This document shows positions 8,501-54,527 of a stretch of 64,000 bases of DNA, in pieces. Source of the DNA: a virus. Made by a program: the position numbers and the translations under genes. The stretch is from IMG/VR virus record IMGVR_UViG_3300035070_002905, positions 108,111-172,110 of that record, one strand, 5' to 3'. Numbering within the stretch: the first letter of the stretch is position 1; every line of letters begins with the position of its first letter. The notes under the pieces are model-generated. The model was not told the DNA's origin. It did not search any database and saw only the letters and a program-made list of their open reading frames with translations.

Positions 8501-10247
8501 CGCCACGTAGTTCCAGACGTTCCGGCGCACCGGTATCGCTAGATAGCGGTAGGTTAGTGTGCACTGCGATGTTGTTAACTGTTACTCGAGAGAAAACGAT
8601 ATGCAAATCAGTAGTTACTGCGCCATCATTCTCTGGAGTAGTCGAAACATTCCAGTAGGTCGTAGCCGCACCTGTATGCGCTTCAGTACCCTCTATAGGT
8701 GTCAACTTGGTTACGCCAGTCGTAGGATCTCCTGGGTATACACGAACATCACGTTCTGTACCGCCAGTAGTAACTTGACCATAGGTAACTTCTAAGACTT
8801 GGTTATGTGAAAGTCGGCTCGCAGGAATCACTAGTTCACATACGTCTGCCGTAGCTGCAGTCTCATCGCCGAACGAAGCCGAGAATAGACCGGCACCATT
8901 GCCGAACATCCTAGGGTATTGACGTCCTGCGGTAGTACGGAATTCCGCACCGATACCCATACCTTGAACTATATCGTTAGCGTGAGTACCTAGTAGCTCT
9001 CCGTTGACTAGACCTGTTTGTTGGTTAACTAGCGCAGCAGCTTCTGAAAAGGATGCACCCTTAAGAGCGGCCATGTGATATGCTGAGTTATCCACTAGTT
9101 GTAGATCGAAGATACCTTGACGCTGTACGATGATATGGATATCGCCAGCAACGCCGTCCGGGCGCTCTAGATCCCATACTGTAGTAGCCTGGCTACCGCG
9201 AAGAACGAACTCGTTACCTAGAATAGGGTCGATTTCCACACCTAGGTTAACCGGGTTGCCGTCGTATACGCGGAACATTCGAGTTCCAATAGTTGACGAA
9301 CGAGTGAACCTAGCAGTTAACGCCTTGCCACGTACTGATTCTGCAGGAAGTACTAATTCTATACACGCTCCGGCACCAGTCTCATCTATCTCACTGTTTC
9401 TCCACAGCATGAAGCTGTTATTAGACTGAGATACGATCGGCATGATACGTGAGTTATCAGTAGCCCAGAACGCATCGATACCTAGAGTACGTCGAACAAT
9501 CTCATCGGCTTGTGCTTTAGTTAACGTAGCACCTGAGGTAAGACCATCACGTACGAAGATCTCTTCTACTACCGGCTGGAATGCAGCATCGCCGTCGAGA
9601 TTAAGATTCTGGATAGCTGATGCATCTAAGCGAGCAGTACCAGTAAGTTCTTCCAGACGATCACGGATTGTAGTACCGCGTGCGTTGTTACGTACAGACA
9701 GTTCCTGCCATCGTGCCGTATTGAAGGCTTCCGGCGTAGTTACTGGATCGATACACAGGTATTCACGGGCAGACGTAGTCTCCCATACCGTAGCACCGAG
9801 TACGTACGTAGATGAAGCACTGTAGTCTGCCGAACGAGCTGCGCCGCGTAGCGCTACGATCTCTTCCGGTAGAACGCTAAGTGCTTCTACTCGAGTGTTA
9901 ATAGACTCTAGCGATAGATCCTGCCATTTAGCCGAGTCGAATGCTTCTGCCACGGTAACCGCAGTAGTACAGACATAGTGTACTGAGTTAAAGGTTACTA
10001 GATCATCTAGTGCGTATGTTGCGGTGGCATCATACAGTGAAGCAGAGTTGCTCCCGATGACGCTGTGTACGGTTGATTGTAGGAATCGTCCGTTAGAGAG
10101 AGTGATCTCGCCACCCGTACCATTACATAGGTACGATAGACCGGTCTCAGTGATAAACGTGAATTCGCCTAGCCTAATCGGTAGGGCAATCGCTGCCGCT
10201 ACAGTATCTGCCTGTAGACGTCTCACTTGTTGTTGGTTATAGCTCAC
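5580..10247 (-). CDS. Tail fibre/appendage protein with CBM5/12-like repeats and internal duplication (1555 aa)
   Basis: GTG start with AGGAG RBS; six (Y/F)xxxxxYxxG/DxxV..W repeats; one ~380-aa module present twice. Confidence 0.75.
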   Translation of the reverse strand: MSYNQQQVRRLQADTVAAAIALPIRLGEFTFITETGLSYLCNGTGGEITLSNGRFLQSTVHSVIGSNSASLYDATATYALDDLVTFNSVHYVCTTAVTVAEAFDSAKWQDLSLESINTRVEALSVLPEEIVALRGAARSADYSASSTYVLGATVWETTSAREYLCIDPVTTPEAFNTARWQELSVRNNARGTTIRDRLEELTGTARLDASAIQNLNLDGDAAFQPVVEEIFVRDGLTSGATLTKAQADEIVRRTLGIDAFWATDNSRIMPIVSQSNNSFMLWRNSEIDETGAGACIELVLPAESVRGKALTARFTRSSTIGTRMFRVYDGNPVNLGVEIDPILGNEFVLRGSQATTVWDLERPDGVAGDIHIIVQRQGIFDLQLVDNSAYHMAALKGASFSEAAALVNQQTGLVNGELLGTHANDIVQGMGIGAEFRTTAGRQYPRMFGNGAGLFSASFGDETAATADVCELVIPASRLSHNQVLEVTYGQVTTGGTERDVRVYPGDPTTGVTKLTPIEGTEAHTGAATTYWNVSTTPENDGAVTTDLHIVFSRVTVNNIAVHTNLPLSSDTGAPERLELRGGARPTEFSATQAYSAGDSVYRTADNRTFIAREDLTAGPWDAANWYEASTLSNAALVLETSVGISDAHEQLRGQAVAADFDSTATYAIDDSCVFGNRLYHAIAAVLPGNFDASEWQVISIVDNEGRIDTAEVDIEALRGAARPADFDSTATYTAGTYVIYLSRLYKARTGVAAGAWDVAEWQIVSAITNENRIEAVEGDIVSLRGAAAYNVFNIANNYAIGAYVSHLGRDYVAIATVTAGAFNAADWEELSLQAINNRLGFTPLELIDDIESVAEANRLESWAVQNVFSKYAKHAKTIADRDSIADDEALSVAQSTEILRTFGVGVTTARTALAYYDDADSWGVYAPSGGQDPTDAGHAYSEVIFTGKDLTGGSYITFFISDIVSGLTRELRVFNGDATASGTEILPVVGTNSGATAHAVTYQVPANSADIYVYLGRQILLDVEFHTSLGQSTGTQIRDELEALTGTDRLDSSAIQNLNIDGTGTFQNVFREIAVRDAIPTGTTLTKAQGDELLERTLVPGTAWRDTNSRIMPFASLTAGSWWFWLNSSVDETGDGAVAEFIIPAQEARGKVLQARFARGSATGDRHFRVYRGDPTSGGVVVDPVYGQESNVYGALQTVVWNLDSALVATDDYHVVVQRQGVYDLQVVSNAPFMASDIRGSGFGSAALKIFEDFGVTNGIPLNTLADDMVEGLGVSASFRRDAGRSFPLGFGSGAGFFTNVFADETSASADVCELVVPAGALTHNMVLEIRYGQVTSSGTDRDIRVYEGNPVGGGATKIDPVVGTEAHTNTDTTYWTVSTTPGAGGLVTNDLHIVFARVAVTNIKFHADVPVGSDTGIQIRDKLEALTGTERLNVSAIEGASTDIITVVHPNHPFTQQQLLARGAGANWAPADASSMAPATGFVCEVVDIGTYRVQSSGICTITGHGYTTGQYYWLNSAGTFTSAQPVSGLIQEVFQVIDDDTILIGIGQPYLI

Positions 10248-10298
10248 AGTAATCTCCTATCTATGGTACGCATGCGCGCTAATTAATGTGCTTACGTA

Positions 10299-10305
10299 TA
10301 TTTTA
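10299..10305 (-). promoter_or_regulatory. Putative late promoter TAAAATA
   Basis: Directly downstream of a terminator and upstream of the 1555-aa gene; motif recurs in equivalent positions elsewhere. Confidence 0.6.
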
Positions 10306-10308
10306 GAC

Positions 10309-10334
10309 AAAAAGAAAGGGCCCGAAGGCCCTTC
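10309..10334 (-). terminator. Intrinsic terminator
   Basis: GAAGGGCC-TTCG-GGCCCTTTCTTTTT on minus strand. Confidence 0.8.
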
Positions 10335-46998: not shown

Positions 46999-47033
46999 TG
47001 TTATAAGTAATACGTAGGGATATACACTCTACG
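46999..47033 (+). promoter_or_regulatory. Putative early promoter TGTTATAAG + downstream hairpin
   Basis: TGTTATAAGTAATA-CGTAGGG-ATATACA-CTCTACG. Confidence 0.7.
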
Positions 47034-47056
47034 CTTTAAATATATAGTGTTCATCT

Positions 47057-47090
47057 TGTTATAAGTAAGATGTACAGGAGAATACTCTCC
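47057..47090 (+). promoter_or_regulatory. Second tandem early promoter + hairpin
   Basis: TGTTATAAGTAAGATGTACA-GGAG-AATACT-CTCC. Confidence 0.7.
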
Positions 47091-47739: not shown

Positions 47740-47773
47740 TGCTATAAGTAATGTGTACCGAGGATTACTCCTC
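47740..47773 (+). promoter_or_regulatory. Putative early promoter (TGCTATAAG) + hairpin
   Basis: TGCTATAAGTAATGTGTACC-GAGG-ATTACT-CCTC. Confidence 0.6.
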
Positions 47774-48088: not shown

Positions 48089-48103
48089 AGTCTGGGCTGC
48101 CCT

Positions 48104-48126
48104 GGGCCTCCGGGCCCTTTTTCTTT
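48104..48126 (+). terminator. Intrinsic terminator
   Basis: GGGCC-TCCG-GGCCC-TTTTTCTTT. Confidence 0.75.
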
Positions 48127-48152: not shown

Positions 48153-48677
48153 ATGGAATTAGCATTAAAACAAGCACGTCGCTTAGACATCGCTCTACGT
48201 AACTTGACTATCGAAGGTCAGACTGCGGAAGTTCGTAAGTACGACCGCCAGACTATCGTCGGTGATCTTGATGCAGGTGGTGAAAGCCTGTCCCGTAACA
48301 TCCTAGATGTAATGATCTTAAACGATATCCGTTATCAGATCCGTCATCTAATCAACTACGCTAACATGGAGACCGGCGTAAGCGAACTTCTTAACGAACG
48401 TGACCGTCTGACTCGTGACCTAGAGATCTACAGCAAGCTAGGCCGCGTCGATAGCACGGAAGATCAGCTTCGCTTCGTAGGCTCTAACTTCGATACTAAT
48501 ACCGTGCGCCTAAGCGTTGTACGCCAGGAGCATCGTACTAATGTCGACAAGGAAGTGGCTACCGCTAAGCACCGTCTAGAAGAAATCTCTGCAGAGCTTA
48601 ACCAGCTTAACGAGACGGCAGTAATCGAGCTAGACGATGATGATGTAGCTATGTTAAAACACTACAACTATCTATAG
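48153..48677 (+). CDS. Hypothetical coiled-coil protein
   Basis: GGAG RBS; helical heptad pattern. Confidence 0.7.
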   Translation: MELALKQARRLDIALRNLTIEGQTAEVRKYDRQTIVGDLDAGGESLSRNILDVMILNDIRYQIRHLINYANMETGVSELLNERDRLTRDLEIYSKLGRVDSTEDQLRFVGSNFDTNTVRLSVVRQEHRTNVDKEVATAKHRLEEISAELNQLNETAVIELDDDDVAMLKHYNYL

Positions 48678-48684
48678 GTCCCCT

Positions 48685-48819
48685 ATGAAGAAGATACGAA
48701 ACTGGCTGGCGATCCTACTCGCCGCCTGGGTCGTACTGATGTACATTAGCTGGCACGTCTGGCCTTATGTACTAGGTACAGTAATTGCGTACGTAATCTA
48801 TAAACTTTGGAGTAAATAA
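48685..48819 (+). CDS. Small membrane peptide (44 aa, not in ORF track)
   Basis: MKKIRNWLAILLAAWVVLMYISWHVWPYVLGTVIAYVIYKLWSK; stop lies 2 bp before next ATG. Confidence 0.55.
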   Translation: MKKIRNWLAILLAAWVVLMYISWHVWPYVLGTVIAYVIYKLWSK

Positions 48820-48821
48820 AT

Positions 48822-49268
48822 ATGTTCGATCTATTCGGATTCTGGTTTGGTGTAACCGTATTATCAGCACCTATGCTAATTCTTGGCTTGATCCTATCGC
48901 TGGCTCTAGCCGATCTATTGGTTAAAGACATGAGCCGTGGTCGTATGGACGGCTGCAGTCATCTGTTCCCGGGCAGCAGTACTCTGCAGGCTATCCTGAA
49001 GGACTTCGGTAAAGGTGCCAAAGGCTTCTTCGAGATCCTGGTACTATTCGTAAGTGCGTTCTTCTGGGTGATGTGGTTATTCGCATGGATTAAGCATGAT
49101 ATTACCATGGTTAAATTCGTAAGCCGAGCTGCAGAAGGCCTAGCGCCATACCTAGGTTGGGTTGGTGCAGTAGTAGTTCCTGTGTTCTTGATTCGCGTAG
49201 TTGGTCGTAAGATGTTCGATGCGTACTACAAAGTTGAAACAATCCTGGCTGATAAGGAAGGTAAATAA
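48822..49268 (+). CDS. MFDLxGFW-family membrane protein, copy 1
   Basis: 3-4 hydrophobic helices; shared N-terminus and ExLAPxxxWxG motif. Confidence 0.8.
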   Translation: MFDLFGFWFGVTVLSAPMLILGLILSLALADLLVKDMSRGRMDGCSHLFPGSSTLQAILKDFGKGAKGFFEILVLFVSAFFWVMWLFAWIKHDITMVKFVSRAAEGLAPYLGWVGAVVVPVFLIRVVGRKMFDAYYKVETILADKEGK

Positions 49269-49690
49269 TGTTAGATCTATTAGGTTTCTGGACTGCGGTA
49301 ACTGTCTTCACCCTACCGGTGCTGTTCCTATTCAGTATCGTTATGATTATCGTAACTAACTGTACGGTACATTGGGCTACTCGTGGTCGCTGTCAAGACT
49401 TCTGCTGCAAGGTTCCAGTTCTAAACAAAGTGATCGCCTGGATCGAAGCGAGTAACGACGGCCTATTCACGCTGGTCTTCTGCCTAGGTGTAGCAGAAGT
49501 AATCATGGGGCTGGTCATTTCAGTAGATAATGGTATCTCTGTAGTGCAGCTAGTGGCTGTCCTATCAGAAGCTACTGCTCCGTTCTTCTCGTGGATCGGT
49601 ATCCTAGCTCTATTCGTCATTGCTATTCGTGTAGTCTCAGATGCATACTACAAGATTGCAGATAAGCTTGAAAAGTTGGAGAGTAAGTAA
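49268..49690 (+). CDS. MFDLxGFW-family membrane protein, copy 2
   Basis: TAATG coupling; paralogous motifs. Confidence 0.8.
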   Translation: MLDLLGFWTAVTVFTLPVLFLFSIVMIIVTNCTVHWATRGRCQDFCCKVPVLNKVIAWIEASNDGLFTLVFCLGVAEVIMGLVISVDNGISVVQLVAVLSEATAPFFSWIGILALFVIAIRVVSDAYYKIADKLEKLESK

Positions 49691-50112
49691 TGTTTGATCT
49701 ATTAGGTTTCTGGACTGCGGTAACTCTACTTACTGGTCCTACTCTAATCATATCTATGGCACTCCTAGCGCTTGCTCTTAACGGAGCAGGTGGCTGGATT
49801 ACCCGTGGTCGCTGCGAGAATCTAGGTGAGAGCCTGCCTATCCTAAAGCAGTTCTGTAAGGGGTTAGATGATGCGCCAGAGCCGCTAGGCATGGCTATAA
49901 TCATAGTAGGCGTGGTCTTCGGGCTTGTCCTCGGGCTTGTCGCTGTAAATGCTGGCCTCAGTCTAGTGCACATCGTGTCTACTCTAGCGGAAGCTCTGGC
50001 TCCGTACTTCGGATGGATCGGTGTGGTTATCCTAGTATCGTTCGGTGCACGTGCCGTGTCTGATGCTTACTACAAAATCGCTACTAAACTTGAAAACTTG
50101 GAGAATAAATAA
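49690..50112 (+). CDS. MFDLxGFW-family membrane protein, copy 3
   Basis: TAATG coupling; paralogous motifs. Confidence 0.8.
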   Translation: MFDLLGFWTAVTLLTGPTLIISMALLALALNGAGGWITRGRCENLGESLPILKQFCKGLDDAPEPLGMAIIIVGVVFGLVLGLVAVNAGLSLVHIVSTLAEALAPYFGWIGVVILVSFGARAVSDAYYKIATKLENLENK

Positions 50113-50534
50113 TGTTAGATCTATTTGCATTCTGGACAAACACTACAATCATGATTATCCCGGTACTAATCTGCTGGAGCGTAATCGTAGTATCCTTCTT
50201 CGACTGGCGCATCGACTGCATTACCGACGGTAAGCACAAGAAGTTCCTGTACAACCGTATCCCTGGTATGAAGTCGGCTGACCAATGGATGTGTCAGAAC
50301 GACGGCCTAGGCTTCATCGTATTCCTGATCTGTGTTGCAGCAGGCTTCGGTCTACCGGTCTCGGCGTTCATGCTAGATACTTCAATGGTGCATATCATTG
50401 CTACTCTAGCCGAGTGGTCTGCACCGTACACTGCATGGGTTGACATCGTGTTAGTGGCATGGTTTAGTGTTGAAGTTGTACTTAAGCGACTAATCTCGCT
50501 TATCGATCGTATCGAAAACTTGGAGAATAAGTAA
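50112..50534 (+). CDS. MFDLxGFW-family membrane protein, copy 4
   Basis: TAATG coupling; paralogous motifs. Confidence 0.8.
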   Translation: MLDLFAFWTNTTIMIIPVLICWSVIVVSFFDWRIDCITDGKHKKFLYNRIPGMKSADQWMCQNDGLGFIVFLICVAAGFGLPVSAFMLDTSMVHIIATLAEWSAPYTAWVDIVLVAWFSVEVVLKRLISLIDRIENLENK

Positions 50535-50959
50535 TGTTTGATCTATTAGGTTTCTGGACTACTCTAACTCTACTAGTTGCACCTGTATTCTGGGTGGCAG
50601 GCGCGATCGTCGTAAGTCTGGTCGACTGGGAAGTGGGTCGTATCTCTAACGGTAAGACTACTAACTTCACCGATCGATTCGACTTCCTAGATATCTTCAA
50701 GCATAACCTGTTCCTGCTTCCGATACAGCGTGGTTTTCCGCTAGTACTCTGGACAGCTGCGTCGCTGGTCATGCTTCTGGTCTCTGTTATTGCATACCTG
50801 GAAGACGGTTACTACATCGTCCATATGTATGCAGGTCTATCAGAGCTACTGGCTCCGGTATTCGGCTGGGTCGGTCTACTGCTAGGTGGCTACTTCCTAG
50901 TGCACTTCGTGCTTAAGAAGATGTACACGTTGAGCGAAAAGATTGATCGCTTAAGCTAG
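50534..50959 (+). CDS. MFDLxGFW-family membrane protein, copy 5
   Basis: TAATG coupling; paralogous motifs. Confidence 0.8.
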   Translation: MFDLLGFWTTLTLLVAPVFWVAGAIVVSLVDWEVGRISNGKTTNFTDRFDFLDIFKHNLFLLPIQRGFPLVLWTAASLVMLLVSVIAYLEDGYYIVHMYAGLSELLAPVFGWVGLLLGGYFLVHFVLKKMYTLSEKIDRLS

Positions 50960-50998
50960 TCCTTCGGGACTAGCAAAGAGTCCTTCGGGGCTCTTTTT
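50955..50998 (+). terminator. Tandem UUCG hairpins; the second is an intrinsic terminator
   Basis: GCTAGTCC-TTCG-GGACTAGC then AAAGAGTCC-TTCG-GGGCTCTTTTT. Confidence 0.85.
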
Positions 50999-51001
50999 AG
51001 C

Positions 51002-51008
51002 TAAAATA
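51002..51008 (+). promoter_or_regulatory. Putative late promoter TAAAATA
   Basis: 3 bp after terminator U-tract; upstream of 61-aa ORF. Confidence 0.55.
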
Positions 51009-54026: not shown

Positions 54027-54063
54027 TGTTATAAGTAAGTTGTAGGGAGATATACTGTCTCCC
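54027..54063 (+). promoter_or_regulatory. Putative early promoter + hairpin
   Basis: TGTTATAAGTAAGTTGTA-GGGAGA-TATACTG-TCTCCC. Confidence 0.7.
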
Positions 54064-54083
54064 ATAACTTAAAGGTAATAATT

Positions 54084-54527
54084 ATGTTTGATCTATTCGG
54101 TTTCTGGTCTGCTGTTTCTATGATGACTGTAGCTCCTATGCTACTGTGCTATTATGGGATAGTTCAGTTCGTTCGACTGGAATGTATGCTGATTACTAAA
54201 GGTGAGCGTGACGATTGGCATAGTAAGATGTGGATGGGTAAACAGATAGAGCAGGGTATCGACGACTTTCTGTTCAACCTACCGTACGCATCGTATGCAA
54301 TAGTAGTTCCGTCGGCTATGCTAAACATACTAGTAGTAATGGGCTGGTTATTTAGTGATATCGATATGACATGGGTACAATGTGTTGCTAAACTATCTGA
54401 AGATCTAGCTCCACTATTCGGTTGGGTATTCGCAGTAGCTGGTCCAGTGATCCTGTTCCACATTGTAGCTCAGAAGATGTACGCCCTATCTAAAAAAGTG
54501 GACAAAGCTCTTGAAGCTAAAAATTAA
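54084..54527 (+). CDS. MFDLxGFW-family membrane protein, copy 6 (stand-alone)
   Basis: MFDLFGFW start; LSEDLAPLFGW; has its own promoter. Confidence 0.8.
   Translation: MFDLFGFWSAVSMMTVAPMLLCYYGIVQFVRLECMLITKGERDDWHSKMWMGKQIEQGIDDFLFNLPYASYAIVVPSAMLNILVVMGWLFSDIDMTWVQCVAKLSEDLAPLFGWVFAVAGPVILFHIVAQKMYALSKKVDKALEAKN

Follow-up and report, generated by a model that had tools for sequence, protein, structure and literature searches.

The stretch analysed here, 64,000 nucleotides of DNA from an uncultured marine phage (the window; bases 108111-172110 of the 172,110-bp IMG/VR record IMGVR_UViG_3300035070_002905, from a genome estimated to be 95% complete), carries a tandem array of five paralogous genes for small, predicted inner-membrane proteins. 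We name the array copies W1 to W5 in order, and the paralogues outside the array W6 to W8. All five copies lie on the plus strand: W1 at 48822-49268 (148 amino acids), W2 at 49268-49690 (140), W3 at 49690-50112 (140), W4 at 50112-50534 (140) and W5 at 50534-50959 (141). At all four junctions the stop codon and the next start codon overlap by one base in the sequence TAATG, and the start-to-start spacings are 446, 422, 422 and 422 bp. A sequence-only reading of this DNA had reported five coupled paralogues with 422-bp intervals, and recomputing the reading frames and spacings bore this out. The motifs it listed are also real, with ten residues invariant in W1-W5 (M1, D3, L4, F7, W8, G40, E105, A108, P109 and W113).

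Pairwise protein identity among W1-W5 is only 24-43%, whereas the DNA at the junctions is far more alike. A family of 61-nt repeats, 61-92% identical to one another, spans the junctions on the plus strand: W1/W2 at 49248-49308, W2/W3 at 49670-49730, W3/W4 at 50092-50152 and W4/W5 at 50514-50574; W5, as the final copy, has no junction after it. The W2/W3 repeat, which we use as the reference copy, covers the C-terminal KLExLExK codons with their GGAG, the TAATG overlap and the MxDLLGFWT codons; the W4/W5 repeat is 92% identical to it and includes a 33-nt exact match. The exact stretches common to junction pairs are 30 nt (pair 2/3), 33 nt (3/5), 20-21 nt (2/4 and 2/5) and 17 nt (4/5), compared to no more than 9-12 nt for the longest exact stretches between gene interiors. 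Similarly, nucleotide identity between copies is 62-92% in the first 13 codons compared to 35-50% in the interiors. The picture of diverged interiors with near-identical junctions thus holds at the level of exact repeats.

The products are predicted to be membrane proteins, as the sequence-only reading had supposed, and to have three membrane helices. An AlphaFold2 model of W3, built from a 101-sequence alignment, has a mean predicted local distance difference test score (pLDDT) of 95.1 and a predicted template modelling score (pTM) of 0.79, with helices at residues 2-37, 45-48, 50-61, 64-88 and 92-138. Loop 1 and the C-terminal tail each average 5.8 lysines plus arginines across the 101 members, compared to 0.12 in loop 2 and 0 in the N-terminal tip; by the positive-inside rule, this distribution places the N-terminus outside, loop 1 inside, loop 2 outside and the C-terminal tail inside. 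From the model, the hydropathy of the 101 members and their charge distribution, the family protein is predicted to be N-out, C-in, with three membrane helices and a basic cytoplasmic C-terminal helix. Searching the Protein Data Bank with Foldseek returned nothing at E <= 0.001, the best Z score in a wide VIA-align comparison (5.8) was at the noise level for helical models, and BFVD contained only three matching phage proteins, all unnamed, of which two had adjacent accessions. Reading the Gly-Phe pair in MxDLxGFW as prepilin-like was considered and dropped, given that there is no basic leader and no Glu at +5 and that the N-terminus is predicted to be outside.

Copy-number comparison among relatives, a check proposed in the sequence-only reading, showed that the content of the array varies. 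The comparison covers three close genomes, namely the present phage (W) and relatives R (L009) and S (L019), both recovered from Logan assemblies, and one pair from a second lineage. S is 97-98% identical to W at the nucleotide level, and its array matches that of W in all five copies and in their order, at 94-99% protein identity. In its second copy, S2 (L019 10001-10423), the Trp of the AP..(G/S)W motif, invariant elsewhere, is replaced by Gly (FFSGIG); S2 may be a decaying copy, a functionally shifted copy or an assembly error. R is approximately 90% identical and has four array copies. R1, R3, R4 and R6 are orthologous to W1, W4, W5 and W6 (84, 86, 74 and 78% amino acid identity, respectively), and W2 has no separate counterpart in R. 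The single gene R2 is nearest to W3 (58% identical, compared to 46% for W2). Given that R2 shares its upstream flank with W2 and its downstream flank with W3, the difference between W and R is exactly one 422-bp unit. R2 is itself a mosaic: for the most part it is W3-like (72 of 107 informative sites), and it is W2-like at nucleotides 235-342 (27 of 35 sites), with a breakpoint statistic that was reached by none of 500 permutations. This pattern fits recombination or gene conversion between neighbouring copies.

A change of exactly one gene was also observed in an unrelated podophage lineage of the Zobellviridae type, where contig L015 has three coupled copies and the complete phage PQ867843.1 has two, at 93-96% identity. 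The boundaries of this indel are precise: ...AAACTATA is followed by ATG...AAGCTTTA and then GGGCAG in one phage, and directly by GGGCAG in the other. The indel sits between the similar K-L-stop ends of two units. Two independent lineages thus each show a copy-number difference of precisely one gene (5, 5 and 4 copies; 3 versus 2).

The tempo of these changes differs from what had been proposed. The sequence-only reading pictured an accordion-like array in which junction repeats allow gain, loss and exchange of variants. In a maximum-likelihood tree, the orthologue groups have 99-100% support and stems of 1.0-1.8 substitutions per site, with W2, W3 and R2 grouping together in an unresolved part of the tree, and orthologues of the paralogues are retained across three phages. 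The long stems and retained orthologues indicate that the copies are ancient and individually kept rather than products of recent amplification. Together with the low identity between copies and the identical array in the 97-98% relative, this argues against a recently expanded accordion, and turnover of the array appears to be slow and to proceed by whole genes. The part of the proposal that stands is that array content varies and that there are signals of exchange, as seen in the one-gene indels, the R2 mosaic and the greater divergence of gene centres than of flanks at four-fold degenerate sites; a fast tempo is not supported.

Most of the likeness between junctions can be accounted for by protein and translation constraints. 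The 3' half of the junction encodes the N-terminal motif, which is conserved family-wide in protein, and the 5' half encodes the C-terminal K-L-E-x-L-E-x-K, in which the TTG GAG codons supply the GGAG ribosome site. Arrays in other phages are arranged likewise, for example ...CTGGAGGAAAAAGAATGA, with other N-terminal codons. Where two copies share an amino acid, they use the same codon more often than expected from codon usage, most clearly at the N-terminus (0.74 observed versus 0.40 expected), compared to 0.47 versus 0.36 in the interior and 0.57 versus 0.45 at the C-terminus. However, the N-terminal codons GAT/AAT CTA .. GGT TTC TGG are also found in W6, W7 and W8, which lie outside the array, so they are not kept for recombination within it. 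The sequence-only reading had allowed that constraint from the ribosome-binding site and the protein might fully explain the conserved junctions. In our analysis the junction repeats appear to be mostly by-products of protein and translation constraints, with a modest N-terminal synonymous excess left over. Whatever their cause, exact repeats of 17-33 nt are still long enough to act as recombination substrates.

A second feature of the family is a fast-evolving segment in the middle of each gene. Between W and R, flanking genes have nonsynonymous divergence (dN) of 0.007-0.06, compared to 0.08-0.34 for the family genes, whose ratio of nonsynonymous to synonymous divergence (omega, dN/dS) is 0.16-0.55. 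In a 90-nt sliding window, identity falls in mid-gene to 0.64 in W1 (trough at approximately 48935-49114), 0.74 in W4 (50302-50391), 0.60 in W5 (50707-50841) and 0.64 in W6 (54262-54396), while the gene ends are 0.90-0.98 identical, which is the background level. Pooled over seven pairs (six orthologue pairs and W3/R2), substitutions affect 23% of residues in the N-terminal tip and helix 1, 33% in loop 1, 50% in helix 2, 24% in helix 3 and 12% in the C-terminal tail. We use core for the part of the predicted protein that runs from the end of the cytoplasmic loop through helix 2 and the short periplasmic turn, and putative frame for the N-terminal MxDLxGFW tip with helix 1, helix 3 with its AP..GW motif and the basic cytoplasmic C-terminal helix. 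For the six orthologue pairs pooled, the core has dN 0.29, dS 1.11 and omega 0.26, compared to dN 0.10-0.13, dS 0.37-0.39 and omega 0.25-0.36 for the frame. When the dN/dS check suggested in the sequence-only reading was run, core dN was thus raised and core omega was not above that of the frame. Four-fold sites differ at a frequency of 0.46 in the core, compared to 0.25, 0.34 and 0.09 in parts of the frame and 0.10-0.27 in background genes (Fisher p = 2.6e-4). The greater divergence of the core at neutral sites as well is compatible with divergent core alleles having been imported or long kept, with recombination in the conserved ends; faster protein change alone does not fit.

The Zobellviridae-type pair is closer than W and R (flank dS 0.06-0.12) and shows the same segment. 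In its copy 1, dN is 0.24 in the core and 0.02 in the ends (omega 0.61 and 0.12), and in copy 2 it is 0.12 and 0.02 (omega 1.39 and 0.26); the counts are small and an omega above 1 is not established. The differences include radical, multi-nucleotide codon changes: GTC>AGA (V>R), GGT>TTC (G>F), AGG>TTT (R>F) and GAT>ACA (D>T). A central hypervariable segment, comprising helix 2 and its flanking loops within a conserved frame, is therefore seen in two independent lineages. A diversity-generating retroelement was excluded as the source of this variation: the genome has no match to PF00078 (reverse transcriptase), the core segments match only themselves within the genome and so have no template repeat, and the substitution rates per base (A 0.33, C 0.39, G 0.30, T 0.25) show no adenine bias.

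Eight paralogues are present in the genome, three of which the sequence-only reading had missed, and profile A4 matches all of them over their full length (E 8e-28 to 3e-35). W6 (window 54084-54527, plus strand, 147 amino acids) stands alone after a gene for an SNF2 helicase. W7 and W8 form a coupled pair outside the window, at genome positions 9359-9802 and 9799-10329 (L007 1501-2471), with 147 and 176 amino acids. In W8, loop 1 and helix 2 carry a long insertion, and the W7/W8 pair is kept in relatives L010 and L011. We define membership of the family by a full-length profile match (profile A3/A4) over approximately 130-190 amino acids together with an N-terminal M-x-D-[LIV]-x-G-[FY]-W. Searching 1.84 billion proteins with a profile built from all eight paralogues recovered 153 representatives at E <= 1e-3; their lengths are 128-214 amino acids, with nearly all in the range 130-190, and the match is full-length in nearly every case. 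Of 20 representatives looked up, all of metagenomic origin, two were labelled 'hypothetical protein' and 18 had no name. M1, D3, G6 and W8 are at least 90% conserved across 101 distant members. Ten of these 101 match phrog_36116 (PHROGs v4, no assigned function; best E = 1.3e-11), W1-W5 themselves miss it at E <= 0.01, Pfam and NCBIfam gave no consistent match for the family, and no usable Pfam, PHROG or NCBIfam family was found for the copies or their neighbours.

The genomic contexts of family members are phage-like, with genes for DnaB, PolA, baseplate proteins, tail fibres and an amidoligase/GATase cluster, and the family is also present in one complete Zobellviridae genome of 49.7 kb that came from an oyster virome. 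No relative was detected when 185,579 prokaryote genomes were scanned with a pattern. The related phages D69 and Arash, whose portals are 68% and 49% identical to the one here, have no family member in their whole records, although the same profile finds all eight in the present genome; these absences mark the genes as an accessory family. Among phages in culture, the nearest to the present one are the Vibrio phages D69, D148 and D181. Pattern scans of IMG/VR, metagenomes and genomes gave 0, 1 and 0 loci, respectively. No matches came from nucleotide and tblastn searches of a phage collection that used the locus, copy 3 and P0022 as queries, P0013 and P0019 match only one uncultured oyster-virome phage, and an ESM Atlas search yielded no usable feature match. 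Sampled phages have 1, 1, 1, 2, 2, 3, 4 or 5 copies per locus. Taken together, the searches describe what appears to be an undescribed, phage-restricted family.

Two recurrent arrangements were observed elsewhere. In four Zobellviridae-like contigs (L015 7297-13229, L016 9032-14576, L024 2687-7488 and L020 5735-10429), one or more family genes lie just 5' of a conserved gene of approximately 295 amino acids and a GATase / COOH-NH2 ligase / amidoligase cluster, with one small gene intervening in two of the four. In L022 (5541-6008) and L013 (7555-8001), a different protein of approximately 150 amino acids with three transmembrane helices precedes, and is coupled to, a single family member. It has a similar charged C-terminal coil and no MxDLxGFW tip, and its profile E of 0.015-0.036 suggests that it may be a very distant relative.

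The array is the distal part of a putative transcription unit containing small genes, a gene of 174 amino acids, a 44-amino-acid peptide gene and the five copies. A whole-genome motif scan placed two copies of the TGTTATAAGTAA motif, which resembles an extended -10 element, at the head of this unit (46999-47075, plus strand) and a third, TG(C)TATAAGTAA, further along but still 5' of the array (47740-47760, plus strand); the TG(T/C)TATAAGTAA motifs start at 46999, 47057 and 47740. The TGTTATAAGTAA motif was also found 5' of W6, as a TGTTATAAGTAAG motif with a hairpin immediately preceding the gene (54027-54083, plus strand), and 5' of the W7/W8 cluster, at genome position 6806. Motifs of the same type (TGTTATAAG) head other envelope-related units as well. 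A GC hairpin with a T-run (48101-48125, plus strand), between the upstream small genes and the 174-amino-acid gene, is possibly a partial terminator. The 44-amino-acid hydrophobic peptide gene lies at 48685-48819 (plus strand); its 3' end (AAACTTTGGAGTAAATAA) resembles an inter-copy junction and holds the ribosome site for W1. The unit is closed by an intrinsic terminator at 50955-50998 (plus strand), in which two UUCG-loop hairpins stand in tandem and U5 follows the second (-26.7 kcal/mol, z = -4.9). A generic sigma-70 promoter scan found no excess of sites (7, compared to a mean of 10.6 in shuffled sequence), and also missed the real terminator after W5.

A late-type motif, TAAAATA, precedes the portal gene, a 315-amino-acid gene and a 61-amino-acid gene, and not the array. 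Its absence before the array makes expression outside the late phase likely, to the extent that such motifs report timing. TAAAATA motifs bracket the array unit at window positions 51002, 52163 (minus strand), 46970 (minus), 55435 (minus) and 55458, and the Arash homologue of the 315-amino-acid gene is annotated as a structural protein. The 174-amino-acid gene (48153-48677, plus strand), counted as the first gene of the array unit, has no family assignment. Compared to R it has dS 1.04, four-fold divergence of 0.43 and dN 0.04, with dS of 0.07-0.37 for the neighbouring genes. It resembles a mosaic block imported by recombination and held under strong purifying selection. In D69, homologues of the 174- and 61-amino-acid genes adjoin. 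S has two genes that are absent here, of 189 (L019 14747-15316) and 181 amino acids (L019 17076-17621), one of which is flanked by the SNF2 helicase gene and the promoter motif of W6; both may be mobile insertions such as homing endonucleases.

Our preferred interpretation, which we consider somewhat better than an even bet, is that the locus is a terminator-bounded unit of five ancient, translationally coupled paralogues in which a conserved frame carries a variable core, and that the copies form a panel of specificities. Under this interpretation, five inner-membrane proteins of approximately 140 amino acids would be made before the late genes, as the motifs suggest. The core diverges several times as fast as the frame or the genes nearby, and whole genes are gained or lost with breakpoints in the like-ended junctions. 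Each copy would use helix 2 to recognise a different variant of a partner that is embedded in the membrane or close to the periplasm. The partner may be the DNA-delivery apparatus of competing phages, in which case the proteins would act in superinfection exclusion, or it may be a host defence or toxin protein that acts on the membrane, in which case they would act in immunity or anti-defence. A role in exclusion, immunity or anti-defence, which is argued from analogy, is a tentative assignment that we regard as falling somewhat short of probable.

Several observations weigh against this interpretation. The family is linked to a function neither by experiment nor by homology, and hhalign comparison of A4 with P22 SieA detected no homology (probability 0.3%, E = 0.18 over 9 columns). 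In the best-sampled comparison the core omega of 0.26 equals that of the frame, so positive selection is not demonstrated, and omega for whole family genes is below 1 throughout. The omega near 1 in the closer pair comes from few sites and also fits relaxed constraint, many of the helix-2 changes between W1 and R1 are conservative hydrophobic swaps, and the raised core dS could come from import of alleles instead of selection. The R2 mosaic can also stem from region-specific divergence after duplication. Expression timing depends on unverified promoter motifs, and only three close genomes and one pair from a second lineage were sampled.

Three other explanations account for parts of the data. 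The paralogues could be subunits of one hetero-oligomeric membrane complex, with translational coupling fixing the ratios in which they are made; such a complex might be a channel, a scaffold or a component of a machine that remodels the envelope. TAATG coupling at every junction, the retention in three phages of distinct orthologues whose order is unchanged and which are under purifying selection, and the sharing of a promoter motif with other envelope-related units would all be expected of such a complex. However, loci have between one and five copies and close relatives differ by one unit, so no fixed stoichiometry is required; in addition, W6 stands alone behind its own promoter motif, and obligate subunit interfaces do not usually contain a hypervariable core. 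We consider this explanation unlikely. Slightly more doubtful still, in our judgement, is that there is no cassette mechanism at all, with the junctions a by-product of constraint, the core a weakly constrained hydrophobic spacer and the indels rare accidents. The family-wide conservation of the N-terminal motif in protein, the GGAG within the last codons, the same codons in W6-W8, the unchanged array in the 97-98% relative, omega below 1 and the many conservative helix-2 swaps are all compatible with it. It does not readily explain why four-fold sites are more diverged in the core than in the frame or background, why core dN in the closer pair is raised 5- to 10-fold, with radical codon changes, while dS is at or near background, why two independent one-unit indels have breakpoints in like-ended junctions, or why synonymous identity is in excess at the N-terminus.

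The remaining explanation, that these are holin- or antiholin-like proteins in which several copies tune the time of lysis, is in our view distinctly improbable. Tandem holin and antiholin pairs are known, and the family proteins have the predicted hallmarks of class I holins such as lambda S105, being small, with three membrane helices, an N-out/C-in topology and a charged cytoplasmic C-terminal tail; moreover, no other lysis cassette was located in the genome. Against this, the genome has eight copies, loop 1 is long (approximately 38 amino acids), and the model is a well-packed bundle with high pLDDT, unlike typical holins. The promoter context is also of the non-late kind, with TGTTATAAG-type motifs upstream and no TAAAATA, and a fast-evolving helix 2 is unexpected in a self-assembling pore. 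BFVD rows for holins were at noise level only. No endolysin was recognised beside either cluster: the array neighbours have no lytic-enzyme domains, and the genome has no PF00959 (Phage_lysozyme), PF01510 (Amidase_2), PF01464 (SLT) or PF08291 (Peptidase_M15_3), other endolysin families not having been searched.

Comparison with characterized systems helps to place the specificity-panel interpretation. P22 SieA is a protein of the inner membrane, 162-164 amino acids long, with three predicted membrane helices, and it prevents DNA delivery through an effect on the ejection proteins gp16 and gp20 (PMC10883804). The array proteins are likewise phage-encoded, of similar size, and predicted to span the inner membrane three times, a likeness that we treat as functional analogy only. 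SieA differs in being a single, prophage-expressed gene of a temperate phage, while the present genes form a tandem array and their phage is large and apparently lytic; a hypervariable helix has not been reported for SieA. A literature search for tandem membrane paralogues in exclusion found nothing relevant. Immunity proteins offer a second parallel. Those against pore-forming colicins are small inner-membrane proteins with three to four helices whose specificity lies in intramembrane helix-helix contacts, and the 'orphan' immunity arrays of polymorphic toxin systems consist of diversified tandem paralogues, with units gained and lost by recombination. In contrast to these, the genes described here belong to a lytic-type phage and are not beside a toxin gene, and neither sequence nor fold comparison gave a match. 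The poxvirus gene accordion at K3L also involves tandem copies of one gene that change in number by recombination between units, but its copies are recent and near-identical, whereas those of the array are separate orthologues with 24-43% identity.

Small membrane proteins are among the least understood phage genes, and the few that have been studied, including Imm, SieA and HK97 gp15, decide which viruses enter the cell. Here, we describe a family with eight paralogues in one genome, a predicted topology, one-gene indels and a fast core in a fixed frame that was seen in two lineages. The family is widespread in marine phage metagenomes, where it has no name. Our analysis also corrects the accordion picture of the array, which is old and slow-changing, with junction repeats that are mostly by-products of constraint. 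It is possible, though doubtful, that the family exemplifies a new 'variable-helix' class of phage proteins, in which a three-helix frame would present a diversifying helix and periplasmic turn to variable membrane targets, and in which panels would be built by gene gain and loss and by exchange of cores through the gene ends. More generally, the combination of a fast-evolving helix in a fixed frame with whole-gene change in the array points to a function in an arms race, whether between virus and host or between viruses.

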